DNA of 63,979 nt, counting the filler, from Porpidia crustulata (lineage: Eukaryota), in assembly GCA_964255105.1 (NCBI GenBank). It is 4 parts of 4 records of this genome, joined end to end, with 100 filler letters (N's around TTAATTAATTAA, not from the genome) between each part and the next. Parts side by side here need not be neighbours in the genome. Positions count along the whole stretch, not along the records: positions 32,154 to 48,071 come from CAXUWE010000278.1; 3 more parts are not named here. One strand, given 5' to 3'. The translations under genes and the position numbers were made by a program. A model generated the notes under the pieces. That model saw only the letters and a program-made list of their open reading frames with translations. It was not told where the DNA came from and searched no databases. Positions 2,620 through 63,096 of this stretch are shown piece after piece (the first letter of the stretch is position 1; each line of letters opens with the position of its first letter).

Positions 2620-5510
2620 CTAGAGCTTGGCCCCGGTTTGATTCTCCCCATCCATCTTGTCCTCTCTCTGTACGTCCGTCGACCGGCCACGTGAACGCTG
2701 TCTCTCCTGCGCCATCGCCGACAGGCTTTGCTTGCTGGTACCGTGTTCGTTGTTGTCGTGAGGCGGGCTTTTGGTGCGCTCTTTCTCCGCCTCGCGCTCT
2801 TTTCGCTCCTCCTTGGCTTGGGCAACTTTGGCCTTGAACCAGCCTATCGGCCCCTTTTTTTCTGTCGTCTCTTCTTTTTCCTTAACCGCTTCCTTCTCTT
2901 TAGCAGGGGTGGAGTCGTTACTTGACGTTTGAACGGTTGACACTGTCGAGGGTTCGGTACCAAATGGTTGAGAGTCGGTTGTAGCCGACTTGTGTGGCTT
3001 GTTAGAACTACCCACGGTGCTGGTACTTTGTTCAGCAATCGCGTTAGAGCCGACTCTGGAAGGATTTGGAGAGACAGCAGCAATGTCGCCGGTTTTCTTC
3101 GTGGAAGATGATAGCCGCCAACGGTGCCTCTTCTCCGTCCTTCCGTTCTTCGAAGCAGGATCATCGGTGTGGTCGGTTTCGGACTGATCTGTATGTTCTG
3201 TAATCGAACCTCGAGAACGATTGGAATGAGTGGGCGACTGCGGCTTCAGAGTCTGGTCGGAATTGTGATGAAGTTGACTTTCAGGTGGCATGTTCCTGGT
3301 CTGTTGGTCCCCACCCAGGTGCGGTGCTGTTTCGATAACAGGCGTTGCGTCTGTATTGTACAGACTGGGGGGCAAGTTGTTCATCGGATCCGTCTTCACT
3401 TGAGTACTGACGCCGGGCGTAGGCATGGGCGTATAAAAGGCCTGATTCTGTGGAGATTCTGGTGCAGCATGTAATGAATTGGCAGAACTTTGAGCACTGG
3501 GATTTGAGCTTCCTGGGAGGCGTTTCTTTCGAAGCTTGTTGGGTGCTCGGCTCTCTTTACGCTCATCATCGCTCTTGGGCGCTTTAACAAAAAACCCTGA
3601 CACCTTTCGTTCTTTAGGCGGCGTTCCGATGATGGTCTGAGCACCGAAAGCTGGTGATGGTGGCTCGAGACGGGAACTCTCCACGGGAATCAAAAGCTCT
3701 TTGCTTTGACCTCCAACGGCAGATTCGGTGACCGTGGCAAGGCTCGACGGAGCTTCAGCAGTAGGGGTGACTGACGATGCGGTAGATGATGACCGTCCCT
3801 CAGAATTAGATTGTGCCTGAGCTAATCTAGAATTTGGCGATGACATCGGCGTAGATGGGGAAAGATATCCGCCTTGTGCAGGCCCGGCCAGTGCCACTGT
3901 AGGCGAGTCCGACTGCCTATTGAACCGAGAGGAGGGAATGCTTGGGGATCTCTTTGAAGGCAGAGTATTACTCCTTTGGACGCCACCAGCTATGTTGACA
4001 GATCCATGAGGGCTAGCTGGACTTAATGGAACCGGACTCGGAGCGTTCGTTGAATTTTTGGAGGTTTTGGAGGAAACAGAAACGTTTCTCCGAATGCCGC
4101 CAAACTTGCGAAGACTATCTGCCCCAGCGCTCGCATTCGAAGCTGATCTACCAAGTGCAGCCTTTACCATTGAAGGAGAGCTAGGTTGCCGATTTTGAGC
4201 GCTCGTCTGAATCTCTTTGACAGTCTTCTCGTCGGCCGCTGTGCCACTCATGCCAATCAGGAAACTATCCTGATTGTCGATAAGGAAGATCACGACGTCC
4301 TGACTCAGGCGGTATTCTTGAGGGATCATGTCGTGGGCAGGATGCGACAGCATACCAGGCTGGAATATCGATGCAAGGTTGCGTGAGGTCATGCGATTTA
4401 CGTCAGACTTGGACGAAAACACCGCGAGAAGGTCGAGAATGTAGAGAAGCAACTGTCGGTTGAGGGAGGGTAATTCCGTTATTAGTTGTTGATACGTCAG
4501 AATCGCTTGCTTGCTATCAAAAGTACCCGCGGTCTGAACTTGCGCCTCCGCCTCGTTGTCTCCAACAGCTTGGACCTGATGACCTCTGAGAGGATCTCGA
4601 AACTTCTCATAATAGTCCAGAGGTACGATAGGTTGCGGTAATTGGTTGAGGTACCGCCGAAGGATGTTGGCGGCATCATGCACGGTATATCCAGTCCAAT
4701 CGAGACCCTTCCCGTAGCGATCTGGAGAATCAAAAACGGCCTGTAATTCTTTAATACGTTTCGCTGCACCGCTTAACCGAAATATGCCTTCGACATCCGT
4801 AGCTGATCGGCGATCACGAATTAGCACATCCCTCCTAGCAGAGACAATGGAGTGGAAGCACCAACCCTTTTCTTTTAAGAATACACCACATTTGGCTACT
4901 ACTATTGGTACATATCCGTATACAAAGGTTTCTCCATGCTCGTCCGTAAGAGAGATTGCGACATTGGCGTAAGGAATGCTGTCCTGAAGAGAGACACCGA
5001 AGATTCCACTTGGCGCTTGCTCTGCTGCTGTTAGATATGTTAGCTGTAATTATTAAAGATGGCATTGGTACATTAGATAAAAACACGTAATAAACGGAAG
5101 AAACAATTTCGAAATACGAGCTTTTAATAGAAATGAGTCAGCTGTAACAAAAAGTGAATGACAAATTCTTCAATGAAATAGGGGTAAATATGGATTCGCA
5201 GATATAGGCCAGGCTGCAGACATGTGAGACCATTGGCATTCATGTGAAGAGTCCAAGAAAACCATGACATTCGAGAGAAAGCGCATTTAGCAGATGTGAA
5301 GGGCAAATGTTGATGATAGCTAGACAAAAGGTCAGACGAATGAGATATCTTACCCTTCTCTTCTTCCTTCTTAGTATTCTTCTTGAACTGCTTCCACCAC
5401 GAAACTAGATCACGCTTGGTGGTAGGTGGCGAAGCAGCTTGTATTGCCACCGTTGGCTGCTGAAAAGTTTGCTGGGCGGACGGCGTATGAGGGAGTCTTT
5501 CCGTTGCCAT
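2620..5510 (-). CDS. SAC7: Rho GTPase-activating protein, Sac7/Bag7-like (3 exons)
   Basis: Spliced model: MATERLP...WWKQFKK / GIFGVSLQDSIPYANVAISL...YGYVPIVVAKCGVFLKEK / ATDVEGIFRLSG (arginine finger)...NRMTSRNLASIFQP. Intron 1 is 5028-5353; intron 2 is about 4804-4865. Long S/P-rich C-terminus. Confidence 0.88.
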
Positions 5511-15992: not shown

Positions 15993-16092
15993 NNNNNNNN
16001 NNNNNNNNNNNNNNNNNNNNNNNNNNNNNNNNNNNNTTAATTAATTAANNNNNNNNNNNNNNNNNNNNNNNNNNNNNNNNNNNNNNNNNNNN
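15993..16092. other. Artificial contig-joining spacer
   Basis: 44 N + TTAATTAATTAA (stops in all six frames) + 44 N; identical at three places. Confidence 0.98.
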
Positions 16093-16809
16093 GGCACCAC
16101 CAACACCAAGCCCTTGTCAATCGATCTAGTGAACACCATATATACACCTCACACACCCTACTTAAATTTTGTGAAAATTCCCTTATTATTTCCGTTTCGA
16201 TTTCCTTCCAAAAAAATCGAAAAATCAAAATCATGATATATATATATTAGTTGAAAGGCTCGACATCGACATCGGTCGTCCGCGATGGTCGTGTGTGTGG
16301 GGGTTTTCAACAATTAGATGGAGTAAACAGGGTGGAGTTCGAAGGGTTGTGGCGAAGGAAGATGGTGACTGATGGGGCAGTTGGGTAGTTACAAAGGCGG
16401 TGGTTTGGGGTTAGATGTTGTGATGCAAGAGGCCAGATGTTTCTGATTGGCGGGGTCGATATGTCGTCAAGGGGAAATCGTTTTGATCAATGAGACGATA
16501 GGTGTAGGTAGCGGTGCGGGCTGCAGTGAGTCATCCAAGAGGAGTTCTCTACCGGTGGCGCGGAAACGCTGTTCAGGCCGTGGTGGCGATGACGCATGCT
16601 CGAACGTCAAAGGATCCGGACGAGGAGGATCCCGTTGGAGGATCGAGGCGAAGACGTTGATTGGTGGCGTGGTCGTGCTTGGATGCGTGTCCTTTGCAGA
16701 GCGGGCAGGATGCTCGCTCAAGCCTTTTACATAGTAGGGACCATAACCATCCACGAAACAAAATCATGCACAAACGCACAATCGTTTCCACCACCTCTAA
16801 ACCTTCATC

Positions 16810-18341: not shown

Positions 18342-19136
18342 TCATGGACTTGCTATCGATGGGGATGACATGCATGGCGTTTCCGAATGATCATGTCTGG
18401 GCCTCGAGCTCAACTGAAAGAGAGTTGGAATCGATAACGGTGGGAGACAGTAAGAGCAAAGGGCATATGCCAAAAAGAACATCCAACTCACACTATTGTT
18501 CCTGCTTCGCCTCTGTTGTTCCACCATTCCCAACCCACTGACCACGATCTCATCCAAAAAGCTCCCTGCTATCTCCCCATTGGAAATCTCCAATTTCCCC
18601 TCCTTTCCCAAACTGAACCCGCTATTGTGAAACTTGGCAATCCATTCCTTGCGATCATTCACTAGCACCAAATCGGCGCTGAATATCCCATCCCCTTCCC
18701 ACTTCAGCGGGCCGATGGAGCTTTCAAAGACATGACCGCGCGTGAACAAGCCGGTGGCCTCCATGCTCGTCATACGCCCGTGGATGATTAGATCAACGGT
18801 GCGCGAGTATGTGTGAAAATCGGCGGTGCCGGCCAGCATTGAGGGTTCAGGCGAGGCGCCGCGGAAGATGCGCATGTGAGGCTTGGAGCTGAAGATGGAG
18901 CCGGAGTTTGCAGCAACGGTGTAAAGGGGGGTCCGTTTATCTTCGTCTTTGATGGTCAGATGGCGGTGGGTCATGCCATCGAGGTAGATGTGGAGGAAGC
19001 GAGGTTGCTGTAGAGAGGGAGGTGGAGGTTGTTGGGGAAATGGCTGTTGGCCTTGGATGGGGACTTTCGAGTTGGAGGAATATTGTTGGGCAGAAGGAGG
19101 AGCGGTCTTGAAGTCATATGGGGGCGGGCTCGCCAT
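18342..19136 (-). CDS. Hypothetical fungal protein (beta-rich domain plus C-terminal helix; DUF6593/tubby-C-like)
   Basis: N-terminal PPPY and Q/P-rich segment, then LKWEGDG...LVLVNDRKEWIAKF...LDEIVVSGLGMVEQQRR. A probable GTGAGT donor near 18492 makes the true C-terminus uncertain. Confidence 0.65.
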   Translation of the reverse strand: MASPPPYDFKTAPPSAQQYSSNSKVPIQGQQPFPQQPPPPSLQQPRFLHIYLDGMTHRHLTIKDEDKRTPLYTVAANSGSIFSSKPHMRIFRGASPEPSMLAGTADFHTYSRTVDLIIHGRMTSMEATGLFTRGHVFESSIGPLKWEGDGIFSADLVLVNDRKEWIAKFHNSGFSLGKEGKLEISNGEIAGSFLDEIVVSGLGMVEQQRRSRNNSVSWMFFLAYALCSYCLPPLSIPTLFQLSSRPRHDHSETPCMSSPSIASP

Positions 19137-21042
19137 TGCTTGGTCGACTGGTGGGTTTCGGGGCTATTTCCTGGGACGACAATGGGTACGGCGGTGTTAA
19201 GGAGAATAGTTGATGAAGGAGAAATTTCGGAGTGGCCGTAGTAGAAATTCATACTTTAATTCTTTGATTTAAAAATACGACATCGTCGATCAGGAGGTGA
19301 ATCAGAGGATGAGCCGTAGTGTGGAGGCTGAGTTACTATCTCGCGTCTTTGAGGTTCCTCTTATTCCATCGCACTCTCTACTCCCAATGGGACTGTCGAG
19401 GGTAAACGAGCCCTGTCTCATGTGCCAAACACAGCCACAACTTGCGGATCCTGCGCAGGGCACAGCAGTCAACCCTCCATCAGCACTAATATCATCTTTC
19501 CACTCGAAGTGTCACGATAGAAATATCATTCCTGATACCTGAGTGGCAGTACTGTAGCATATAGCCTGCAACATACGTCTTGAGAGGTTTAGAGGGTTCA
19601 AAGAAGCTTCGTCCTTTCTGAATTGGATGTCGTGCATAAGGTGCATTATGAACTGCCGAGGTGCACTACTCGAATCCATATTATACATTATAACGAACGC
19701 TTCTTTACCTAAAGTAGTCAAGTGCCTAATAAGCCAGTATCGCATACATAGTAGCAGTGTACAGTACAGCAAGGCACAGCTATCCAATATATATTGCCTA
19801 CTTATAAGAGCGATCTCTGATAACCATTCATCATATGCCAGAAAATGCCATGGAGCTCCCTTTCGAATCTACAGGTTCTCAGAGGTCATAATTTACGTCT
19901 TTACCTTGTTACCTTGCTCAGACCCCTCGCTTAGAGCCTCACATCTATCACACGTGCACACTAACCTCTTCACAGCTAAGCGAACCTCCTCCAAACCAAC
20001 CTCACTTTACAGAACTATCTACACATTTAGTTACTATGGCCCTCCAATAACAATGCGCCGTGGCTGCATCGCATTCACAAAGTGTTTATTTCATCCTGTC
20101 AAGGAGGCCAGTAGCGTGATCACGTCATAGCGGTCGCGTTTACCCCGGTTCATGTCATCCAATCCAATGCATCCTCATCCCACACTTCCGCTCTATCAAC
20201 TCATCACTCCAACCAAACCACCATCTCTTACACCATTTACTCTAATGCCCGTCCCTTTCACATGCGCTATCTACCAAGCGACCTCCATACTTACCTACCA
20301 CCTACTATTCACCCTACCACGCCATCTTACCAGTATCACTACTACGGACTTACTGACTCACTCTCGATACTACCTATTAGATGTGATTCCGTTCCGTCCC
20401 GAGGATCGATGACAACTTCACCCGATCAAAGCGGCCTAGATCGACGCTGACCCAACGGGCGAGGGCGCGGCTTGCAGTTAACACCGACTGTTTGAAGACT
20501 ATCTAGAGTCCCGAACCGATACTTTGCCTTAGCTCACACGGATAACTACCAATTTATGGTATCATTATAAATCTCTAAGCCCAAGCTCGAGCTCTAAGCC
20601 CAGAAGCGATTGGCTCAAGAAGGTACGCAATCAGAAACCCTGTACATCTGTATATTTTCCGTCTCCTTAGCACATAAAACAAGCAGCCTGGCGCCCTTTG
20701 CTTCTGCATCCGTTATTATTGTTACTACAATTAATTCCTGCGTGGGATTTTCCTAGGCCATCTTGCTGCCGAGCTTCGCTTCCAGCTGTTGCAAATCTCC
20801 CGTGTGGGGTCTGCTGGTACCGACATGGACGTTTGAATCCTACTTATTCGGGGTCGGAGGTGAAGAAGTTGAGCGCGTCGAGGGCGGGAGACGTATAAAA
20901 CGTTGGTTAGAAAACACATTGTTGGACAGGAGGATATCTGCTTTTGAAAGGTTTATTGCACGGATTTGTTGTGTGCGTTGCTGCAATTGCAACTTATACG
21001 ATTCAACAACATACCTCAAGCGTTAACAATACCACCGCGACA

Positions 21043-32053: not shown

Positions 32054-32153
32054 NNNNNNNNNNNNNNNNNNNNNNNNNNNNNNNNNNNNNNNNNNNNTTA
32101 ATTAATTAANNNNNNNNNNNNNNNNNNNNNNNNNNNNNNNNNNNNNNNNNNNN
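32054..32153. other. Artificial contig-joining spacer
   Basis: 44 N + TTAATTAATTAA + 44 N. Confidence 0.98.
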
Positions 32154-33357
32154 GTTCAGTGGTGGCGGAGGGGGTTTCAACAGGGACGGCTGGCTTTGGG
32201 GGACGTACGCCGGCAAGGCGGTCGAAGGAGCCGGTTGGGGCGGGACGCTGGGCCCGGGTTTGCTTATCGGCTTCGTATTTCTCCCCAACTTTGAGGACGC
32301 CGATGCGCATTTGGCGCCAGTCTTGGAGTTGGCCGATGGCTTGGCGGAGATTATGGTCGTACTCGAGGGATTCCGTGAAAGAGGTGAAGTCGTCGTGGTT
32401 CATCATTCTGGCAAAGGGTTTCGCCTTGTTTAGTAGATCGCGCTCTTCCTTCGTGCGCTTCTTGTCATGCGCCGAGTTTCGCCGGTAGTCGAGCAAGGCG
32501 TGCTCAAAGATGACCTTTTTGCGGTCGGCGCGTGAGGTGAGGCGTGAGTTGTAGATGTCCATTACGATCATTTTGAGCTCCATTTCCGGTTCAAGGTCAC
32601 CGGTTCGGGCGTTGATGCCATCGCCTGGATCAAATTGCATATGCTGAACTGCTTCTTCGGCCTCGTTGGCGAATTCGGTCTCGAATTCGAGGCGGCCGGG
32701 CATGTATCCTTGGACTTCATGGCAGGCTGGGACGCTCGCTGTAGGCTTTTGCTTGGGTGTCGCTGGCGGTGCGGACTTGGCGGCCTCCTTCCGATCTTCT
32801 ATCCGCCGTTTCTTGCGAGCTTGAAACTTTTCTCTAGGGTTCTCTTCCACAAGGCTAGTATCTTTCGGGTCTGCTTTCTCTGGTAGAGGAAACTTGGAAC
32901 TCTCGATATAGGTATTGATGTAGTGGTCTCGAACCTCCTCTTTTGTGCGAAAGCCGCCAATGTGGTCTGCTATGTCGGCCCATGAGCCGAGGCCATACAC
33001 TTCGGCGCCTTCTAGCAATAAGAGCTCCTCGTCCGCGCCCCAGTCCTCGGTATATATGGGTATTGAATGCTGCTCGATGACAGAGTAGGAATGGGTTCTC
33101 GGGTTATGATCACGCGTAGCCTCGCCTTTCGAAAAGCATGGCACACAAAGATCGTAGTCATTGCATGTTGGGGAGGCGCATCGAATGCGAACCTAGGAAT
33201 ATGTGGATAAGCTCTAGCGACTGCTCGAGGTATTCCAATACAAATACAGTACAGAACTACTAACGGTAGAGGTAATGTCGCCGGAACAGACATCACATAT
33301 GTACTTCAAGCCTCCCTCCGTCCCTCTCGTTACTGTCTTCTTCCTGATGACACCCAT
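32154..33357 (-). CDS. ADA2: SAGA/ADA complex subunit Ada2, 3'-truncated by contig end
   Basis: MGVIRKKT...[29 protein letters not shown] (ZZ finger), SANT domain [12 protein letters not shown]...[11 protein letters not shown], and [17 protein letters not shown]. Confidence 0.95.
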
Positions 33358-33717
33358 TTTGCCGACAGAAGGCCTATCCTCCGCTCACTCGGAAGCAGCC
33401 TTTTGAGAGTGCTGGAGGACTCTAAGCACTCTTTCAACGCAGACTGGGGAAAGATTTCTAGTCTCCAAATAGATAGTAAGGCATAGGTGTGTTGCGCGGA
33501 GTAGAGAGCACGGTAAGGTAAGTGGGTAAGTAGGTGGGTAGTAGGCTAGCAGCCTCGTAGTGCGGGTTGGGAGCACCAGACTAATCTACCCTTAGAGCCG
33601 CCACTAGACTAAGGTACCTGGTTGTTCCTGTTTAGGTTCAAGTACCGACCTACCCACGCTAGTCACCGTACCTTACCATAATTACCTCCCTAAGGTATTG
33701 TGCCTAGGTGTGCTAGG

Positions 33718-33988
33718 CACGCTGTTGAAGAAAAAAATGGAAGCATGCGCTAGGGAAACCTCACCAATTTTGACGAGATCATCAAAATTCTGATTAAATT
33801 CTCATGTGCTGTTTAAATTGAAAGTTTCATTGAATATAGTATTCTACTTGCTCAGACGATGACGAGCAGTTGAAGTAGCATTGAACAAGGCATTGTTGTA
33901 AAGAGTTAATCAAAATTTTGATGATAGCTTCACCAAAATTGGTGGGGTTTTCCTAGCGCATGCTTCCATTCTTTTTTTCAACAACGTG
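33718..33988. mobile_element. Non-autonomous TIR element (MITE A, 271 bp), CACG...CGTG ends, 5-bp TSD CTAGG
   Basis: Terminal inverted repeats match at 50 of the first 55 nt (all mismatches are transitions) and extend to about 80 nt with a gap. CTAGG is duplicated at 33713-33717 and 33989-33993. AT-rich non-coding interior. Confidence 0.88.
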
Positions 33989-34529
33989 CTAGGTAGGTTG
34001 GTACCTGAGTTTTTTTTTTCAATAGGCATGAAAGGCATCATCCCATCTTTCTACGTTATCAAGTAGTCATTTGTGATTCGATCCGGAAGGCACCATGCTG
34101 TAGAGACAAAGTATACAGCATTCATCCACTTCCCCTCCACGAATTCTTTACAAGAACCAAAATGCCTTGGGTGCTGCAATACAATCATCCATTTGGATTT
34201 CACGTCGAACATACATTATCAACTCCCTACATAGTGTAACTGCCATCACAGCCCCGATTTAGACCGTCCGTTTCCCCGCCATTCATGTCCGCACGTTGAG
34301 TCTCACTTGGTCCTCATGTCCATAGAGAAGAGTCAGATTCATAGCCGTAGATTTCTCTGTTGCAGCCACTTTCATTTCCATCAGGCGGAGTATCGCACTC
34401 TACAAGCGGAAACGTACCTAAATCGTCCCCCGCCTCCGCCTTACCCGTTCCTATTCCTCTTTCACGACTACGACACCTTTATTCTACACTACCCTCGTAC
34501 GACACCCACTGCAAGGCCGTTCCTCCATC

Positions 34530-36622
34530 ATGTCTTGGAATCTGACGAAGAGTATACCGCTCTGCAGTCTTGCTGATGAGCTACTGCTGACTTGAGTGAG
34601 TGTAGAATTCAAGGAAACCCATCTTGGGTCATTGAAGAACCCTCTTGGTCGTTCAACATCCACATCAAACATCGAAGCGAACGATCCGCAGCCTATAGAT
34701 GAGAAGAATGTTATGAACAACGGCAGTGTAAACAGCAGCAGTAACAATGGCATAGGTCTGTGTCTCGAATTTAAGATGTGAAATAGACTACTGATTGCGA
34801 ATAGCTGCATCGGAAGCTATGGTTTCTCCTCCCGCAGCGCCGACCAAGCCTGGCATTCTCATTGTCACACTCCACGAAGGCAAAGGCTTTTCGTTACCAC
34901 CTCATTACCAGCAAAACTATGGTGCTCAGTCGCAGAATTCAATTTCCGGTGGTAGCGGGTTCTCAGTCGCTGGATCAATGCGCGGAGATCCCTCAGCTGC
35001 CCGGACTCCTGGCACTATGGCAGGTTCATATGCCAACAATGCCCGCCCACAGACCAGTGGAGGTATTAATGCCGCTCCAACCATCCATGGCCGCTACTCG
35101 TCACGTCATCTACCTTACGCACTGCTCGATTTCGATAAACTCCAGGTATTTGTAGACTCTGTTTCCGGAAGCCCTGAGAATCCTTACTGGGCTGGTGACA
35201 ATACTCAATACAAATTTGATGTTTCTCGTGTGACAGAGTTATCTGTACAATTATATCTACGGAATCCAAACGCCCGTCCAGGAGCAGGTAGGAGTGAGGA
35301 CATATTCCTCGGTGTAACACGAGTGACCCCAAGGTTTGAAGAGAAAAAGCACTACGCAGAAGATCCGAAAGCAAACAAAAAGGATAGAGAAAAGAACCAA
35401 GCAGCGTTTGTGCAACAAGAGCGGCAGCTAGGGCAGAGCGGAACCGAATGGCTTGATGTTGCATTCGGGACTGGGTCACTCAAGATTGGTGTCGCGTTTG
35501 TCGAGAACCGACAAAGGACGCTGAAGATTGAAGATTTCGAACTCCTGAAGGTGGTTGGAAAGGGCAGTTTTGGCAAAGTCATGCAGGTGATGAAACGCGA
35601 TACTCACCGGATATACGCTTTGAAGACTATACGAAAAGCCCATATCATCTCTAGGTCCGAGGTCGCGCATACTCTGGCTGAGCGATCGGTCCTTGCTCAG
35701 ATCAACAATCCTTTCATTGTGCCATTGAAATTTTCATTTCAGTCTCCTGAAAAGCTTTACCTCGTCCTTGCATTTGTTAACGGTGGAGAATTGTTTCACC
35801 ACCTACAACGCGAACAGCGATTTGACGTCAGCCGAGCTAGATTCTATACAGCGGAGCTTCTGTGTGCACTGGAATGTTTGCATGGCTTCAACGTCGTTTA
35901 CAGGGATTTGAAACCGGAAAACATCCTCCTCGACTACTCCGGGCATATCGCATTGTGCGACTTCGGGCTCTGCAAGCTCGATATGAAAGACGAGGATCGC
36001 ACAAATACGTTCTGTGGTACCCCGGAATACCTCGCACCAGAGCTACTGTTGGGTCAAGGCTACAACAAAACGGTCGACTGGTGGACTCTCGGCGTACTTC
36101 TCTACGAGATGTTGACAGGACTACCACCTTATTACGATGAAAACACGAATGAGATGTACCGCAAAATCTTGTCCGAGCCTCTCCATTTCCCTGGCCCCGA
36201 GATTGTTCCTCCAGCCGCGAAAGACTTGTTGATACAACTTCTTGACCGCAACCCAGCCTCTAGACTTGGTGCTAAAGGACCTTCGGAGATTAAGGCGCAT
36301 CAGTTTTTCAATGCTATTGATTGGAGGAAACTATTGCAGAGAAAATACGACCCTGTATTTAAGCCGAACGTGGTGAGCACCAACAAGTACATGCATTAAG
36401 CAGGAGAGAAATTAATATGCACAGGTTGATGCGCTAGACACGGCCAACTTCGACCGCGAATTCACCTCAGAAGCTCCTACAGACTCGTACGTCGAGGGAC
36501 CTATACTTTCGCAGACGATGCAGCAGCAATTTGCAGGCTGGTCCTACAATCGCCCTGTTGCAGGACTAGGGGATGCTGGCGGTAGTGTCAAGGATCCTTC
36601 CTTTGGTAGTGTGAGTGGATGA
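34530..36622 (+). CDS. YPK1: AGC Ser/Thr kinase Ypk1/Gad8/YpkA
   Basis: MSWNLTK/KFKETHL..., C2-like region, GKGSFGKV, YRDLKPEN, DFG, TNTFCGTPEYLAPE and hydrophobic motif QFAGWSY; three introns. Confidence 0.95.
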
Positions 36623-36973
36623 TAGTGACTGAGTGATGCCTTACGAGGCATGATTGCATTTGATCGGGCAAGCGTAGAACTGTGGGAGGCTGGTCTTTCA
36701 CAGGCGTGTTTGATTTTCTACACCAATGGACATATTCCACAGGTGACTCTCAATACCAGGAAAAGACACTTGAGAATTATCTGCGCTTCGTTCGAGTCTT
36801 TGCTGGAGGACAAGCTGTGTTCGGCTGTATTATGTGTTCATTTGCAGTATCGAACTATGACACAACTCGTGATGACCGTGAAGACTTCGCACTATGGTGA
36901 GATGAGTTTTTCTAACTGGGCTCAAGGACAACCTGAATGTGTGTGAGGCATCCCGTGACCTGTTCTTCGTGGG

Positions 36974-37236
36974 CACGCGCCAGGCAAAAAAAGCCGCGCA
37001 CTCAAACTTTCCCCACCAAAATTTACTACTGAATTTCAGGAGAACCTAAAAACAAAAGATCATCATCAACAGCATAAAACCCCCACTTAGATCAAAGCTC
37101 AGGAGTTTATGAGAATGAGGGCTGTAATAAACGACGAGAGTAAAATAACAATTTATTAGAACAATAAAATTCCTGAATCCAGTAGTAAATTTGGTGAGGA
37201 AATTTTGGGTGCGCGGCTTTTTTTGCCTGGCGCGTG
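36974..37236. mobile_element. Non-autonomous TIR element (MITE B, 263 bp), CACG...CGTG ends, 5-bp TSD GTGGG
   Basis: The first 28 nt of the TIRs are identical (CACGCGCCAGGCAAAAAAAGCCGCGCAC), and they remain similar to about 67 nt. GTGGG is duplicated at 36969-36973 and 37237-37241. AT-rich interior. Confidence 0.9.
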
Positions 37237-37454
37237 GTGGGGTCTCGAGCGCAAAGGGATCTGGTGGGGCAACTTCCGCGAGCTTCCTCACAGCAAAAGC
37301 TGGGTACCGAGTCCACCAAAACCTGCCACAATTCCTTCCAAGCTTCTATTTGCATATTGCATGAAGAGGGCTATCCAGTACCATTGATCGAAGAGAGCAA
37401 TCCTGACAGAAACAGTGAAAAGGAACAACTGCATCCGACACAACTGCAGACACA

Positions 37455-39266
<1,812 letters not shown>

Positions 39267-43615: not shown

Positions 43616-45170
43616 ATGATGCGGGCACCCAAACGCTTCTTCGCTTCCTGTATAAAGAGTCAGCTTAGATGTAGGCAAGCACGGTCTCAAACGAGCCATT
43701 TAGACGAAGTCGACGTGGAAGTACAACGAGTGATTCTTCGGGTTAGCAACACCTCATCCCCAAATTGCAGGAAAAGCCTCTTGATAATCATACAAGCAAA
43801 CAGGAAGATTTGAGACAGAAACACATTCTGCAGTTAAATCCTGATGTAGGTTTTGCATCAAAGAGCGTCCGATCCGCCGTTGGTAGCGTCTTCCAAAGTC
43901 TGTACCTCCGTCCCATCATGATATTAGGGCTGAATGATGTATTAGACCCCAACATGGAAGGCTACCCCGGAGCTCAATATTATCCTGGGACCGAGCACCT
44001 TGATGAACTGGAGGTCTTGTGTCAAGACCGCGCGCTGAGTGCTTTCGGCCTAGACAGAAAGGAGTGGGGAGTCAACGTTCAATGCACGTCTTCGTAGGGT
44101 CATACACAACACAGCAGCTGATCGGCCGCCGACGTACAGCCTACTCCCTCCCCCTTGCGAATTTGGAAGCTTGCTCCTCAATCGTATCTCCCCACGGCCG
44201 CATCCTCAGCCTGGAGCCTCTGCGTGGCTGTTACCTTTTAAAATACTTTGAGCTCATTGCGTCTCATGACATTAGCACGCTTGACACCAGTTTTTATTCT
44301 TCACTCTCCCGCCTAGGCTCGGTCTACCAACCCTCCATTATATTTGCCAACGCTTCCCTCAGACATGAGTCGCTCGACTATTCGATCCTTCGAAAGATAA
44401 GCCGTCAAGAAGGTGCCTATTTAATAGCTGACATTTCAACGAACGCGGGGCTTTTCGCTGCCGGCCTCCTTCCTTCGCCGTTTCGTCATATTGATATTGC
44501 AACTATGAGCACTCAGGGATCTCTGTGTGGCCCTTGTGGTGCTCTCATATTTTATCGCCGTGAATTGCAGGTCCCCAGACTAAATTTAAAAAACACAGAG
44601 CAGCGCTGGCAGTTAGAACATGCCGTAAATGCCTCCGTCTTTCCAGGGCACCAGGGCGGGCCGCATGCACATACGATCGCGGGTATTGCAGTCGCGTTGA
44701 AGCAGGCGAGCAGCTCATGGTTCAAACAAATACAGGAGGCGGCAGTAGCCAATGCAGCCGTGCTACAGCATTCCTTGCAACAGAAGGGGCTCGGCGTCCA
44801 CGGAAATGAAGGGCAAAGTTCAAAGAGAGCGCTTGAATTAGATGCTGCCAGAAGCACCAAGGAAATGCTGCATTGTGTGGGTTCGGAAGTTGGTCCTGTT
44901 GTGAATGACAGTTATCTGCTTCTTGGTAGTATAGCGTTAACATTCAAAGGGTTTGAAAAAGAACACTTCCAAAGAATCGCAGATATTTTAGACCATGCTA
45001 TTCAGGTTACGAGGACCTGGGAGGCAGCGACTAAAGCGCCAAACGGCCAGCAAAGCGAAGGGAATATCGAGGAGCGGTGGCCTATTGAAAGTGAACCGGA
45101 TATTCTTTCCCTAAAGCTAGAGGTGAAGAGCTTGATGGAGGCTCGGTTGGTGTATGAAAAGCAGACTTGA
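43616..45170 (+). CDS. Highly diverged serine hydroxymethyltransferase paralogue lacking the PLP lysine (pseudoenzyme or young pseudogene)
   Basis: EGYPGAQYYPGTEHLDELEVLCQDRALSAF, WGVNVQ, AAGLLPSPF and VFPGHQGGPH are SHMT hallmarks, but TTHKSLRGPRG reads STQGSLCGPCG. Introns: 43742-43803, about 43898-43945, and a GC-AG intron at 44084-44139. Confidence 0.8.
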
Positions 45171-48071: not shown

Positions 48072-48171
48072 NNNNNNNNNNNNNNNNNNNNNNNNNNNNN
48101 NNNNNNNNNNNNNNNTTAATTAATTAANNNNNNNNNNNNNNNNNNNNNNNNNNNNNNNNNNNNNNNNNNNN
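48072..48171. other. Artificial contig-joining spacer
   Basis: 44 N + TTAATTAATTAA + 44 N. Confidence 0.98.
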
Positions 48172-55713: not shown

Positions 55714-58700
55714 TCATTCACCAGTGTCGAGCAATCGACATGCCACTCTGAGCTGCTCTGAATTGAAGGCAATCTGTAAAACATTGTCAGCTGTCAGTAC
55801 TAGCCTTGGCGCAGATAAGCTTATCGTACATTTTGTGGAAGGAATGGTTCAAAATGGTTCCCGGGAATTGGTAGCACTTTGACCTGGGCACCAACTAGCC
55901 CCTCCCAACCTTGAACAGCAGAATCGCGAGCCTCTTGATTGCTGAGCCATGGGTAGCGAACTCCACACGCAGCTTCGGTGTCGAGGGTCCCTTGGCTCCG
56001 GAGGTAAACCGTTCGAAGCCTGGTGCTTTTTGAGGCGTCAAAGTCTTCTGGATTGAACTCTGTCAACAAGTCTGCATGCTTCTTAAACTCCATGATTATG
56101 TCGCGCGTCCCGACTTTGAGGTTTGAGAAAAGTGTGTTGATAACATGGGCTACCACGCGTTCTGGAAGTGCCTCATGGTTTCGAGGATAGGGTGAATCGA
56201 TTAATACAAGGCCTTTGACTGGGAAGCCGGCTTTTAAGAGATACTGAGCCGCTTGGAACGCAACAACCCCACCGAAGGACCAACCTATAGTTAATAAGCG
56301 TTAATTCAAATGTTGCCAAGGTGAAACTTACCGCCGATAATTAGATCGTGAGCACCTGAGCTTAAAAGACACGAAGCGTAGTCAGCCGCCATCTGCTCCA
56401 GATTAGCCATCTTCATGGACTTGCCAGGAAAATCAGGATCAAAAAATCCGAGAATTTTGCGATCGGGTTGGTGGATTTTTTTGTACATGTTGACCAGCCC
56501 GCTGCCATCGTGGATAAGATATAGTGGTGGGTTCGGATTATTGGAAGCATGTAAGAGCACTGGATTCTTCTTTAGAGAATTGACCATGACTTTTGATATG
56601 CTTGTTTGTATGATCTCCGCATTGGTAGAGAATGATACTTTTCCAGGAGAGAAAGACTCTCCGGGGTTACTGTGTTTCCGATTCGGCTGGAACCTGTGCT
56701 CGAGAAGATCCTCAATATCTTGAAGGGTCTCATACGATAGTAAATCAAGATGATCAAGATTGGTCCTGGGAAATGCGTCCTTCAACTTCGTAGCAATCTC
56801 GATTTGCATTAGAGAATCAACACCAAGTGAGTCTAGCGGCTTTGAATAGTCGAGGTCTTGGGAACCGTAGACCTCACCAATCACTGCATTTATAGTATCT
56901 CGAACCCGAATAGAAGCACTGCCATCTAGTTTAGGGGTCAAAGGGCTTAGCTCAGGCGTCACTGAGCCTGATAGAGTCAAGGCTGGAGTTGAAATTGCCG
57001 AGGCGACAAAGTTCTCCAATGCTTCAAGTGACTCGCATTGTAGTAGGTCGCTTGGACTCATGTCGGTTTCGGGAAAGACCTCTCTTAGCTTTGAGGTGAT
57101 CTCGATCTGCATCAAAGAGTCGATGCCAAGTGATTCCAGTGATTTCGTCGGATCAATATCCTGGGAGCCATAGATCTCCCCAACTGTGTTATTTACCAAG
57201 TCCCGAACTCTGGCACGGGTGTGCACTGCTAGATGCGGAGCGCCAACCGCAGCATGGACCGATTCCTGGTGTTTAGGTCCCGATTTAGAGGAAGGCACGG
57301 AAGGGTACGACACTATGTCGGGACCCCTTTTTGTGTTGGCTGGGCGTGTAGTAGCGTTCATGAGAAGCCTCTGGAAAGAAGCTAGGCGAAGTTTTTTGAA
57401 CTCGATACCCCTGATGACGGCACAGGCTTCTTCATTAGAATCCAACGCGATTGCATCCGCAATTATGACACCACTGGAGTTGTCAAAAAGAGTGCAGTAT
57501 ACGGTGAAGTCTCCACTGAAATTGATGTCATCAAGAACTTCCACAGAATCTACGTGCCCGCAAATACAGATTTCGTCGAATGATACACTCAGATTTGCAG
57601 CAAATCCAGCCGCATGTAACAGCGTATCAGTAAACACAGGAGGTATTAAGCATCCGTTCGTCTGAGCGGTAGAGGGTAATCTGAATGATCCAAAGCCCTC
57701 GTCGGCAGAATCGGACAGACTAAATTTCGTCAGGCTTTGATAGTCTACGGAATAAGTCACCACTCGAGCGAAGATGGTCGTATAAAGAAGATTTTTGTGG
57801 AAAGTGTTGTGAGCAACGTTGCCATGTTTGAAATGCCGTCTCTGTCGATTCGCAAGTGCAGCATCTTTAAGCAGCCGTCGCCTCACTTGGGAGCAGTCTC
57901 GCACAACAAGATTAGTACTGCAACATTGAATTTCCTTGTCCCCTTGAATTGTGGAGATTGTAACTTTCATATCTGATGCGGTTCCAAGTTTAGTGCTTGT
58001 TGGAAATAGACATATGCGGATTAGCTGATTTTTGTTTTCAGAGTCGTATATCAGAGGATTTGAGAAGCTTATGTCCCGGCCAACCAGCAAGCTAATAGTT
58101 GTATCCGGAATGATGGCATGGGCAGCTTCTAGCGCAAGTTCAAAGAAGACCGACGCAGGACAAATCGCAGTTCCTCCAACATTATGGCCTGTAATATATG
58201 GATCAAGGATTGCCATTGTGGTCTCGAAAATAAGACCCGTATTCTCGACTATAGAGGCAGATTTCAAGCGTCTTGGCAGGAGTGTGAAACCGGTATCGCT
58301 GTACGATGGCGAATCTTGCTCAGAGGTCAAAGTAACTGGATGGGATTCTTCGTGAGGCACCGCAAAAGGCGTGTTAAATAACGGATGTCCTGGAAGATCG
58401 ACCATGCTCATGTGTGGTTCGAAGACACGGCGCCAGTCGACGACATTTCTATGCATGAATAAACAGGTGAGAATGGCATAGAGCGTAGTCCATGAGTCCT
58501 TGTCTTTCTGTATTGAAGGAAAAAAATCACATGTATCGCTGGCCACATCTTGTATCATGGGAAGTGTTGTTGGATGAGGGCCTACCTCGATACACACAGC
58601 GCCGTCGAGAGCCCCTATGTTCTGTAAGTTCTGAACAATGTCGGTGAAATGCACGGGTTGCCTGGCATGTCTTGCGAAATAGTCGGGCCCAAAATCCTCA

Positions 58701-61700
58701 GGTGTCAGGAAACGGCCAAGATGATTTGATGCGACCGGGATTAAGGGCGTACACCAAAGTACAGATTGGCCAAGTTCTTCCAATCGTCTGAGGATAGGAT
58801 CCATGGCCTCTGAGTGAAATCCATAGGGCACGGCCAATCTCTTGGTCTTGATCCTTAGGTTTGAACATAGCTTCTGAAAAGTAGCAAGCTGAGGTAAGAC
58901 ACCCGCGACCACACAAGAATCCTCACTGTTCTCGCATGCAACACTCAAACCCGATAACTGAACGTCTCTTTCAATCATAATGTTAGCCTTGGACGCAGAC
59001 AATTTGCATGCTATCATGCTGGATGACTCATGCAGGCAGTATTCCACCATCAAACGAGCTCGATTGGCAACGATGGACAATGCATCCTCCAGAGCTACCG
59101 CGCCTGAGACGACAAGGGCAGCGTACTCGCCCAAGCTTGAAATCAGTCAGCTATTATGCCATACAAGAGAACACTACAACGTACCTATGTCCTAAAACGT
59201 AATCAGGTATAATATTCCACGACATAAGAAGCTGTGCTAAAGAGTATTCCAATACGAAGCAGGCACATTGCGAGGCAACAACGTCATTGACTTCAGAAGC
59301 TGATCGAGGCAGGAGGTCCCCAGAAATGTAGTCGATAATGCTATCAAAACCTAGTCCTTCTAACATGGTATCGCATTGTGTGACTGAAGCTTTGAAGATA
59401 GAGGAGGTTTGCAGCAAATCCTTTCCCATCCCAGAGTAGAGACTACCTTGGCCAGAGAAGACAAAAACGATGGAACGCCTTTTGCTGACGAACTTTGAAT
59501 CGGTCAGATTGGCCTTCGCCAGTTCCGTTTTTAGATCCTCGGATGTCGAGCACGTGATCGATATACGATGGTCGTATAGCTGTCGTCGTGCAGTTGACGT
59601 ATAACAAATATCTTTCAAGCGAGATGCAGAAGGCTCACTCGCCAGGAATTGTTTGTGTTGTAAAACTGACAAGGCCAAAGCCTTTTCAGTCCTTGCTGAG
59701 AGGTTGAACAAATACGTAGCGCGATCTTTTATCCCAGTGTTCATGATCTTGGGTTCCATCCTCTCTTCAAGTACTAAGGCTGCATTCGAGCCCGCGGCCC
59801 CGAAATTGTTCAGTAAAGCTCGCCTAGGGGATGAAGCTCTAGATTCCCATGGAATAGACCTTCTGGGGATGATAATATTACCTTTCTCGAGGTCACCCAA
59901 TTGTGGATTTAACGTCTGGAGGCTAGCCTGCATAGGTATTTCGTTCATTCGTAGCATAAGCAATAGCTTTGCTAGCCCTGCTGAACCAGAAGATGCCTCG
60001 CAATGGCCAATGTTTCCTTTCACCGAGCTGACAATAAGCGGCTTCGCCACCGAGTGTGCTCTTTCAAAAACGGCACGCAAAGTGCTGATCTCGCGAATGT
60101 CTCCTGCCTAAGAAGGTTTCTTTTAGCAGCTTTCCGAATCTAATTTCGTACACACAGCTTACCTGTGTCCCTGTTCCATGAGCCTCAACGACATCTACAG
60201 ACTTCGGGTCAATACTGTTCTTGCTGAGAAGATGACGGATTAACTCTATCTGTGTTTCACTGTGGGGGTGCGTGATTGAATGGGCGTTGCCGCTTTGATT
60301 CACTTCTATTCCCCTGATCACACCATGGATCCGGTCGCTTTCTGCAATCGCATCTGAAAGCCGCTTGAGGACAAAGACGCCGCATCCTTCAGCTCGACCA
60401 TAGCCGTCCGCGTTCTCGTCGAAGGGTTTACAGCCGTTGGTATGGCTGAGGAAATGTCCTCTGTCAAGGCCTAGATACATCTACAAACTGTTAGTAGAAA
60501 GCTTTTGACAGTGCAGTGACAGACTTACATCAGGACTACTGATGGCGTTAGCACCACCTGCTATGGCCGCTGTACAGTCACCAGTTTGCAATGACCGGCA
60601 CGCTTGATATATGGCGACCATGGATGATGAGCATGCGGTATCAATCGTCATAGAAGGCCCACTAAATTTATATACGTATGACACTTTACCACTATGAAAT
60701 GCTCGTAATGTGCCTTAGTGGTGTTTAGCTGAGAATACTCCAATGGAGAGTAAGAACTCTGGATGACTGACCTGGACTGTAGTAAACATCAATGTTGTCC
60801 TTCAGATTGTCGGTATAGTCGCCCGTGGCAAGACCCATATAACAACCAACTGAACGTCTCTGAAAAGAAGGCGTAGCATCGGCCACGTACCCAGCATCCT
60901 CAAGAGCGGCTTGCGAGGCACTAAGAATGATTCTCTGTTGTGGGTCCATGGATCGAGCTTCTCGGGGAGACAAATTGAAAAAGGAAGCGTCGAATCCCCA
61001 GACGTCGTCGAGGAAAGCACCTTTGCTCGAAGCCATTGTGCAAGGTTTCCCAACAACGGTTGGCTCATAGTACTGGGAAACATCAAATCGACTTGCCGGA
61101 AACTATTTGAGAAGCTTGTCAGTTCTTGTGAGAGTAGTTTTGATTTATACATACCTCCGACACCGCGTTTAACCCCATTGACAAAGTCTCCCACAACTGA
61201 GCTTGGCCATTACCCCTGGGGAAGTTCACCCCCATTCCAACTATAGCGATGTCCATTGGCTGGATTGTGGCCGCTTCTCCAGATTTGAATGCTGATCGAT
61301 CTGTGAATGTCACTGCCGAATCTCGGTTTAGGTTCTTCAACTCAGCAAAAAGGGAGTCGGAACTAGGCCCAAAGGAGACGATCTCTATTGGTTGGCCTCT
61401 CGTCTGTTCCAGGCTGTTTTGGATGGCTAAAGATATACCACTGGAGGTCTTGACCCAGTCCATCGGATGAATCAGTAAATGGCGGACCAGCAGCATGGTA
61501 TAGCTTGATAACCCTATGGTTTTCTCACTAATAATCAAGCCATCACTCGAGGATCTAACAGACATTCTCAAATCTTCGAATTCGGGAAACCTGATATTTC
61601 TTCTCTTGACGTCTCTTATAACTTCGTTCAGCGAACTCTCCAGGTGTTCGCCTCCGTGGTACCATGCATTGACATCTGCAAATTTGGTTACTGGCGCAGA

Positions 61701-62408
61701 CACAAGCCGTTGCCTGAACTCTTCTAGCTGTAGTTCTGGCCCGGTGAGCGAGATCATCTTGGTGCTTGAGATAGCAGAGATTCGAATATATTGTTTGTTA
61801 GGCGTTGTATGGTATTCTTGAAGTTGTTTCTGTACTGCTGCTAAACTGAGACCAATGACAACTAGGGACCAAGAGGCCCCCTGCCGGTGGATAGGATCCA
61901 GCTCTTGACTCTTCAGGAAAGACCTGCAGCCAATCCAGAATGCGAGACGAAAGGCTTCGACGCCGAAAGCGATAAAATCGATCAAGCTAGGTGAACATGC
62001 TACAACGGAAGCGCTTAATAGTCCAGAGCAGAAGCCAGTGACCTCAATTACCTCTTCTGACCAGACGTTGAAGCCCTGCTCATATTCTTCGGTTTCTGCA
62101 GCATATCGAAGAAGTTGTAAGAGTGTGATAACAACTAGTTGAATGAGACTACGACCTTGGAGCGAGTTATCAGGAGCCAGAAGGTTTTGAGATTCACTAA
62201 GCTTCGATATATCGATTCCAAGTCGATCCTTTGTGCGTCGATCGAGGCTTTGATATTCTTCCACTAGTACAGCATGACAACGAGAAACGAGCGTCAATCC
62301 TGCTGATGAGGTCCGTACATCCTCTTTTGCGGCTGACAGCGCAGATGAGGAGAAGAGACTTGAGGATCCTTGCCCGCCAAACAATATCACTCGTGACTTG
62401 GCACCCAT
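55714..62408 (-). CDS. Non-reducing iterative type I PKS, SAT-KS-AT-PT-ACP-ACP-TE (7 introns)
   Basis: [58 protein letters not shown]...DTLLH; two ACPs (GIDSLM, GVDSLM); TE GWSFGG...GNHF. All exons join in frame; no C-methyltransferase domain is visible. Confidence 0.95.
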
Positions 62409-63096
62409 CCTGCAGTGTCGAGAACCAAGGGTACTAGAGGCTGTGAAGGCACGAAGCACATAAAGAACTTCTGAAAAACGCTTGACATTTCAACTGTCGA
62501 ACCCGACAACTGCTTGAAAGTAAAACGAAGAAGACAAGTCAGATCCACGAGACCTCATCACCACACATAACGGGGGCCGAAAAGTACAATGGATATGCCT
62601 CCCACTAGATTTGTCTTCTTTGACCTGAGACCGGAGTTCATAACTCGCTGGGGGCTGTTCACCATTTGCTGAGATTCTCAATATTGAATTCGCAAGAGAG
62701 GATTTTATCAAAGACTCTCACTGGACTACCTATGACTTCAAGACCCAACATTCGAGGACGGGCATATCTTGAAGCCCAACTGGTCTAAAGTCCTCGGATT
62801 GTAGTGAACTTATACTGAGACCGCCAGTTCGGAAGTTAACAATGTCTGTCAACCGATAGCTATAGATTAGGGAAAGACGGAGCGACAGAAGAGGCTTTTC
62901 TTTACTGTCTGGCTGGACAGTCATGGGCGTTGTCATCTTTTTCGTATATACTCCGGTCCAGGACCGATTATGACGACGGATACCGGAAGACAGATAAGTA
63001 AGCAAAGAGGCTGATTTCAGAAGCCGCGAAGCTTTCATTCAGCAGTCTACCCTTAGCAGCTGTTAATGTACGTTTTCATACATTGACACCACCATC

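Follow-up and report, generated by a model that had tools for sequence, protein, structure and literature searches.

We analysed a stretch of 63,979 nucleotides from Porpidia crustulata (assembly GCA_964255105.1), here called the window, and found that its region 33713-37241 carries two short inverted-repeat elements, E1 and E2, separated by a gap of 2985 bp. Both begin with CACG and end with CGTG, and both are flanked by exact 5-bp repeats. We regard it as very likely that they are MITEs (miniature transposable elements with inverted repeats) that make target-site duplications (TSDs) of 5 bp. Judged by the footprint of the two elements, namely their ends and the length of the duplication, Transib is the best fit among the known superfamilies, and we put the probability that the mobilising partner is a Transib-like transposase at roughly 0.4. 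The recombinase RAG1 of the vertebrate immune system derives from Transib, a transposon group whose distribution outside animals is patchy and disputed.

The window consists of four pieces of about 16 kb, with runs of N around TTAATTAATTAA linkers at 15993-16093, 32054-32154 and 48072-48171. Different pieces are not necessarily neighbours in the genome; E1 and E2 both lie in the third piece.

Two inverted-repeat elements and their flanking duplications

The elements, their duplications and the boxes inside their left ends are as follows (positions along the window).

33713..33717: left TSD of E1, CTAGG, identical to 33989-33993
33718..33988, + strand: E1, 271-bp non-coding inverted-repeat element (very likely a MITE), ends CACGC..ACGTG
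33759..33771, + strand: subterminal box CCTCACCAATTTT in the left end of E1, with a mirror copy at 33947-33935 on the - strand
33989..33993: right TSD of E1, CTAGG, copy of the left flank 33713-33717
36969..36973: left TSD of E2, GTGGG, identical to 37237-37241 (flanks equal at 5 bp only)
36974..37236, + strand: E2, 263-bp non-coding inverted-repeat element (very likely a MITE), ends CACGCG..CGCGTG
37011..37023, + strand: subterminal box CCCCACCAAAATT in the left end of E2, with a mirror copy at 37199-37187 on the - strand
37237..37241: right TSD of E2, GTGGG, copy of the left flank 36969-36973

A preliminary description of this DNA had reported two elements of 271 and 263 bp, about 3 kb apart, with long terminal inverted repeats starting with CACG and with unrelated interiors. 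Sizes and coordinates proved exact, and the interiors of E1 and E2 indeed do not align with each other. The outer arms of E1 (33717-33772 and 33934-33989) measure 56 nt at 91% identity, one extra G/C pair included, and an inner arm pair of 27 nt (33771-33797 and 33906-33932) follows. The arms of E2 (36974-37023 and 37187-37236) are 50 nt long, ungapped and 92% identical, and BLAST extends them to 68 nt at 91%. Folded as single-stranded DNA, both elements form near-full-length hairpins (z = -13.3 for E1 and -13.1 for E2), and 0 of 200 shuffled sequences folds equally well. An identity as a known RNA was considered and rejected, with only sub-threshold hairpin-type matches in Rfam (MIR6140 at 38.7 bits vs a cut-off of 140).

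Only one open frame of at least 150 aa (stop to stop) touches either element; it spans 37198-37740 and runs from the last 39 bases of E2 into the flank. Another frame of at least 150 aa over the same flank, 37419-37958, is that of a putative glucose-6-phosphate isomerase. Both elements are under about 800 bp, non-coding and bounded by terminal inverted repeats, as MITEs are. The 64-kb window contains no second copy of E1 or E2.

The exact 5-bp flank duplications CTAGG and GTGGG, also claimed in the preliminary description, are confirmed, and the one complete relative found elsewhere (L005, described below) is flanked by AGAGG on both sides, which makes exact 5-bp duplications in three of three complete elements. 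We took as the chance rate the fraction of window positions whose 5-mer recurs unchanged 245-271 bp downstream. This rate is 0.0009-0.0013 window-wide (about 0.0013 for E1 and 0.0009 for E2) and 0.0015 (E1) and 0.0009 (E2) in the local flanks, i.e. about 0.001 per element. The flanks of E2 and L005 are equal only at 5 bp, not at 3 or 4 bp. CTAGG is present twice in the 100 bp left of E1 (the TSD copy included), which slightly weakens E1 taken alone.

Further copies of both elements were found in run X1, the sole public run with the locus, which has 99% of the stretch's sampled words. We aligned the contigs of this run (430,130 contigs read) to 33300-37700 at 80% likeness. Twenty-nine contigs aligned, including 8 at 99% or more, 2 at 95-99%, 16 at 90-95% and 3 below 90%, so that 21 of the 29 are less than 99% alike to the stretch. 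The summed contig depth is 19-28 over E1 and 31-59 over E2, as compared to about 9.6 alongside; it is no copy number, and we read it as a few more copies of each. The rise is almost confined to the two elements (one bin within the neighbouring kinase gene reaches 10.6). Loose contig ends at the element borders enter unrelated flanks; in one case ...GTACAAG precedes a copy that begins with CACGCGGGTCA. One contig joins 37042 to 37188, indicating a shorter relative of E2. None of the run X1 contigs bridges exactly E1 or E2, so an empty allele was not seen. Since both ends of each element are nearly identical, the loose ends cannot be paired and they yield no additional TSD lengths. The preliminary description had named a single-copy state with no empty orthologous site as a refutation of its reading; diverged copies of both elements are in fact present in these contigs. 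Both elements have several dispersed copies per genome, and the copy number looks low, at a few each.

A shared end and its relatives in other lichen-fungus contigs

E1 and E2 are unrelated inside and alike at their ends. A run of A occupies positions 14-20 in E1 and 13-19 in E2, and the box CCYCACCAAWWTT follows at about positions 38-54. This box occurs four times in the 64-kb window, all four within the ends of E1 and E2. Of the end features proposed earlier, the A-tract near positions 11-20 and the CCYCACCAA(A/T)TTT motif near position 40 are both borne out as shared. The GCGC box is the weakest of them, as it is not kept in the relatives L005 and L001.

Using the pattern CACGC-N6-9-AAAAAAA-N15-25-CCYCACCAAWWTT, we found seven matching loci in metagenome contigs (L001 to L007). 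The control scans returned no match at all, neither in viral contigs nor in prokaryotic genomes totalling 596 Gb. One of the loci contains a complete element of 245 bp (L005:3381-3625) with ends CACGCGGGGG..CCCCCGCGTG and flanks AGAGG/AGAGG, so a further copy, from another contig, shows the exact 5-bp TSD together with CACG..CGTG ends. Five loci (L001, L003, L004, L006 and L007) are from one species, most of their length being at least 99% identical, and have in common a half-element (L001:10001-10165) that yields no TSD. In this species the UCH protein is nearest to those of Teloschistales lichens (Gyalolechia 71%, Letrouitia 67%), and the SNF2-like protein of L001 is uninformative for taxonomy. 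The remaining locus, L002, was rejected as a relative; its partner end is absent within 10 kb and it carries no fungal marker, and it probably either matches by chance or is an isolated remnant. Among CACG..CGTG inverted-repeat pairs up to 12 kb apart in the window and the seven loci, there were none other than E1, E2 and L005.

The L001 half-element is interrupted by a pogo/Fot1-type transposon, after which a host gene follows. This transposon (L001:10166-12316) is 2.15 kb long, has 78-nt inverted repeats (92% identical) and a 495-aa DDE_1 frame (stop to stop), and lies just upstream of a UCH (Peptidase_C12) gene.

Across the seven aligned ends of E1, E2 and their relatives there is no variation in CACG, in the A run or in the CCYCACC core, and CACCAAATTTACTACTG is common to the ends of E2, L005 and L001. 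The end block in L005 and L001 reads ACAAAAAAA(C/G)CC and resembles ACAAAAACC, the nonamer of the recombination signal sequence (RSS); the block is of low complexity, and we give the resemblance little weight. From these alignments, three or more families have the architecture in common, and they come from two or more (probably three) lichen-fungus genomes. An end architecture shared by E1, E2 and their relatives fits mobilisation by one or by closely related transposases.

Candidate transposases

The mechanism that we favour has E1 and E2 as two families of non-autonomous cut-and-paste DNA transposons (MITEs) that would present one and the same end to the enzyme: CACG at the terminus, then a short spacer, seven A in a row and the CCYCACCAAWWTT box about 40 bp in. 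Because the elements have no coding capacity, they would be moved in trans by a DDE transposase, which would bind these ends and join them to the target with a 5-bp stagger, the stagger giving rise to the 5-bp duplications. Such an enzyme may be Transib-like (RAG1-core-type), belonging to the EnSpm-Mirage-Chapaev-Transib clade, and may be encoded elsewhere in the genome of the lichen fungus or now be lost. The enzyme that defines Transib is a homologue of the RAG1 core, a DDE transposase with C2C and H3-4H motifs (Pfam PF12940). Mobilisation in trans, by one shared transposase of this superfamily, is what we infer from the observed elements, ends, duplications, copies and relatives. The earlier proposal that a Transib-like or unclassified transposase moved at least two MITE families agrees with the common end architecture; its 'Transib-like' part is drawn from the ends and the TSD length.

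Each paper cited here and below is drawn on in part, and what we say of it holds for that part. Transib has 5-bp TSDs and was called the only superfamily with such TSDs in 2005; CAC at positions 1-3 is universally conserved and GC-rich targets are preferred (Kapitonov & Jurka 2005, PMC1131882). HzTransib makes duplications that are 'invariably 5 base pairs' long, and its 5' CAC has a critical role (Carmona et al. 2016, PMC4840297). The preliminary description had taken CAC ends with 5-bp TSDs as a Transib signature, which PMC1131882 supports. Our elements show the 5-bp TSD in three of three cases (E1, E2 and L005) and CAC...GTG termini in seven of seven aligned ends. The closest known counterparts are the TransibN families of insects (PMC1131882), which likewise have CAC..GTG ends, 5-bp TSDs, an A-rich block within the terminal repeat, and short non-coding copies with long inverted repeats; GC-rich duplicated targets may be a further parallel. 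GC contents of the duplicated sites are 60% (CTAGG), 80% (GTGGG) and 60% (AGAGG) as compared to 49% for the window, three sites being too few to establish a preference. In contrast to the insect families, E1 and E2 have a lichen-ascomycete host, a CACGCNN heptamer and the second box CCYCACCAAWWTT about 40 bp in, and the link between the two groups is through the ends and the duplication length. In the literature covered, no lineage other than Transib was found to have both CAC ends and 5-bp TSDs. We also found no published account of such elements (Transib or 5-bp-TSD MITEs) in lichens or Ascomycota, Repbase Reports and most subscription journals being outside the scope of this search.

Several observations weigh against a Transib-like partner. 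First, no RAG1, CACTA, hAT or MULE domain was detected by Pfam in 47 ORFs of at least 170 aa from the window, L001, L002 and L005; the scan returned ordinary genes and one pogo-type DDE_1 transposase only. Second, the ends depart from the Transib consensus, which consists of CACAATG, a 23-bp spacer (12 bp in some families) and the A-rich nonamer AAAAAAATC (PMC1131882). Here the block of seven A follows the CAC heptamer after 5-6 bp vs 12/23 bp in classical Transib, and the heptamers (CACGCTG, CACGCGC and CACGCGG) match CACAATG only at CAC (plus TG in E1). Spacing is variable in the group, as a protist RAG-like transposon has 4/13-bp spacers (PMC9435367). Third, the TSD length is known from only three complete elements, and E1 taken by itself also admits a duplication of 3 bp, TAG, with ends GCACG..CGTGC, because one extra G/C pair lengthens its inverted repeat. 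In addition, two loose ends at E1 borders in run X1 read ...GGGGGG|CACG and CGTG|GGGGC; if they belong to one copy, 4 bp fits better than 5. Fourth, Transib did not turn up when fungal genomes were surveyed with Pfam, and the survey described it as 'missing from Fungi' (PMC5751038).

The statement in the preliminary description that Transib is known mostly from animals and is not known as a typical Pezizomycotina element stands in part, with that survey on its side and Transib-like proteins from 20 fungi on the other. At first, a Transib transposase was reported in fungi from soybean rust only (PMC1131882). The later list of 20 Transib-like fungal proteins has a supplement that shows Massospora, Austropuccinia and the ascomycete Erysiphe pulchra (Tao et al. 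2022, PMC9435367), and inverted repeats are not reliably identifiable around the Austropuccinia and Erysiphe copies (PMC9435367 supplement). The fungal genes (rust, Massospora, Austropuccinia and Erysiphe pulchra) are coding fragments and show that fungal assemblies, one ascomycete among them, can contain genes for RAG1-core-type transposases, whereas E1, E2 and L005 provide the opposite half, i.e. ends and duplications without the gene. A more specific version, which we hold tentatively and rate somewhat below an even chance, is that Lecanoromycetes carry, or recently carried, their own RAG1/Transib-type lineage with a compact end and several MITE families in at least two orders. Its end would consist of a CAC heptamer, a spacer of a few bases, a block that is similar to ACAAAAAAACC and recalls the RSS nonamer, and a putative second binding box.

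Other known superfamilies differ from E1 and E2 in their duplications, their ends or both. TSDs are 3 bp in fungal EnSpm, 2-3 bp in Plavaka and TA in ESTA (Kojima 2025, PMC12730594), and 7 bp in Kyakuja, 8 bp in Zisupton and 6 bp in IS3EU (same source). The EnSpm-Mirage-Chapaev-Transib clade has CA..TG ends and TSDs of 2-5 bp in common (PMC12730594). Within this broad clade, fungal EnSpm/CACTA, Plavaka and ESTA are similar to E1 and E2 in being fungal and in having CA..TG or CAC..GTG ends, and they differ in having no 5-bp TSD and in being described from Basidiomycota (PMC12730594). Ginger2/TDD elements and solo long terminal repeats (LTRs) can have 5-bp TSDs as well (4-5 bp in Ginger2, PMC10045372), but Ginger2/TDD and LTRs end in TGTNR..CA (PMC2836005) instead of CACG..CGTG, and LTRs are without inverted repeats of 50-68 nt.

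The alternative that fares best, although we consider it unlikely, is an undescribed lineage with 5-bp TSDs that is not Transib proper, either a new branch of the EnSpm-Mirage-Chapaev-Transib clade beside Plavaka and ESTA or a new superfamily. New fungal members of the clade with TSD lengths of their own (those of Plavaka and ESTA above) have been described only recently (PMC12730594), the short spacer and the second box about 40 bp in are unlike the classical Transib end (PMC1131882), and Transib went undetected in the large fungal survey (PMC5751038); against these, only Transib pairs CAC ends with 5-bp TSDs in the literature covered.

We consider improbable that E1 and E2 are classical CACTA/EnSpm or Chapaev MITEs whose TSD of 2-4 bp resembles 5 bp by chance or through a family-specific shift. 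CACTA elements have CAC ends too, CAC..GTG ends are known from EnSpm families in fungi (PMC12730594), and the TAG reading of E1 would suit a 3-bp duplication. However, E2 and L005 have flanks equal at 5 bp only, and chance does not account for three exact 5-mers with a rate of about 0.001 each. The TSD is 5 bp vs 2-4 (typically 3) bp, and the ends are CACGC/CACGT, not CACTA or CACTG, with only CAC in common.

An origin as hAT MITEs of the hAT5 type, which make 5-bp TSDs, is more improbable still. The 5-bp TSD excludes ordinary hAT elements (8 bp) and is compatible with hAT5, hAT elements are common in ascomycetes, and TSDs of 5 bp have been recorded for hAT5 families (cited in PMC12730594). 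On the other hand, hAT5 is placed inside an animal hAT lineage (PMC12730594), and the third base of hAT 5' ends is 'always G' in 22 families (PMC1131882, Fig. S7 legend) vs C in seven of seven ends here, a rule taken from a general comparison of hAT elements and not from hAT5 ends.

That the two sequences are not mobile at all, being palindromic regulatory sequences that evolved in place, or artefacts of the assembly, with flank repeats due to chance, might be suggested by the single copy of each in the 64-kb window and by their intergenic positions beside promoters, but it is already contradicted by the diverged copies in other flanks within run X1, by homologous ends at unrelated loci in other species and by the exact 5-bp flank repeats in all three complete elements, and we give it hardly any credence.

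Locus, host and wider significance

To the left of E1 lies an ADA2-like ORF (- strand) and to its right a gene for an AGC kinase (Ypk1/Gad8-type). E2 is located about 350 bp past the kinase stop and about 220 bp ahead of the putative glucose-6-phosphate isomerase gene. The names ADA2-like and glucose-6-phosphate isomerase are putative, as we take them by eye from the translations. Both elements are intergenic, in promoter/terminator regions of the conserved kinase gene and of the putative isomerase gene. Immediately left of E1 (33500-33720) there are many short GGTAAG/TAGGT-type repeats.

The named best relatives of the kinase, at 85-89% identity, are all from lichen-forming Lecanoromycetes (among them Lignoscripta, Pseudocyphellaria, Umbilicaria and Xylographa), and one further homologue (P0001) is 96% identical. 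Because of these kinase homologues, we take the host to be a lichen-forming ascomycete of the Lecanoromycetes, which bears out and narrows the ascomycete host named in the preliminary description.

Elsewhere in the window, a gene for a non-reducing polyketide synthase, typical of lichen secondary metabolism, spans 56309-62489 (- strand), with SAT, the C-terminal part of KS, AT, PT/DH-like and ACP domains. The ORF 44007-45167 (+ strand) matches the serine hydroxymethyltransferase profile only over positions 154-398 of 399, i.e. the C-terminal two-thirds of the profile, and its N-terminal stretch is unrelated; this may reflect a gene split by an intron or a paralogue that has decayed.

Two other repeats were seen in the contigs of the species represented by L001. 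An element of about 195 bp, TCTTGGTATACGAGG...CATTTCCAAC[A], is found at L001:16391-16585 and L004:3042-3240, with empty sites at L003:~3660-3672 and L001:~3240-3245, so that metagenome samples of a single lichen-fungus species differ in whether they have it. Its flanking duplications are 5 or 6 bp long, (A)GTCGG and (A)TATTC, and its opposite strand starts with TGTTGG, solo-LTR-like; it looks like a recent insertion polymorphism. The other (L001:18633-20017) is about 1.4 kb long and has inverted-repeat arms of 51 nt (92% identical) that start TTAGCGTGTGCAGAAAGG, and the ORF inside it (18789-19406) has no Pfam match.

If Lecanoromycetes do have a Transib lineage of their own, E1, E2 and L005 would provide Ascomycota with its first documented case of complete Transib-type ends and duplications, and the lineage would contradict the survey's 'missing from Fungi' (PMC5751038). 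If the partner is not Transib, it would define another way of arriving at CAC ends together with 5-bp duplications. E1 and E2 do not yet demonstrate a fungal RAG1-type transposon; they give a specific lead to one that can be tested at low cost, and their ends are useful as seeds for repeat annotation in lichen-fungus genomes. MITEs with a Transib-type footprint across lichen fungi may offer a handle for finding a fungal Transib-like transposase and for dating its presence in Ascomycota.

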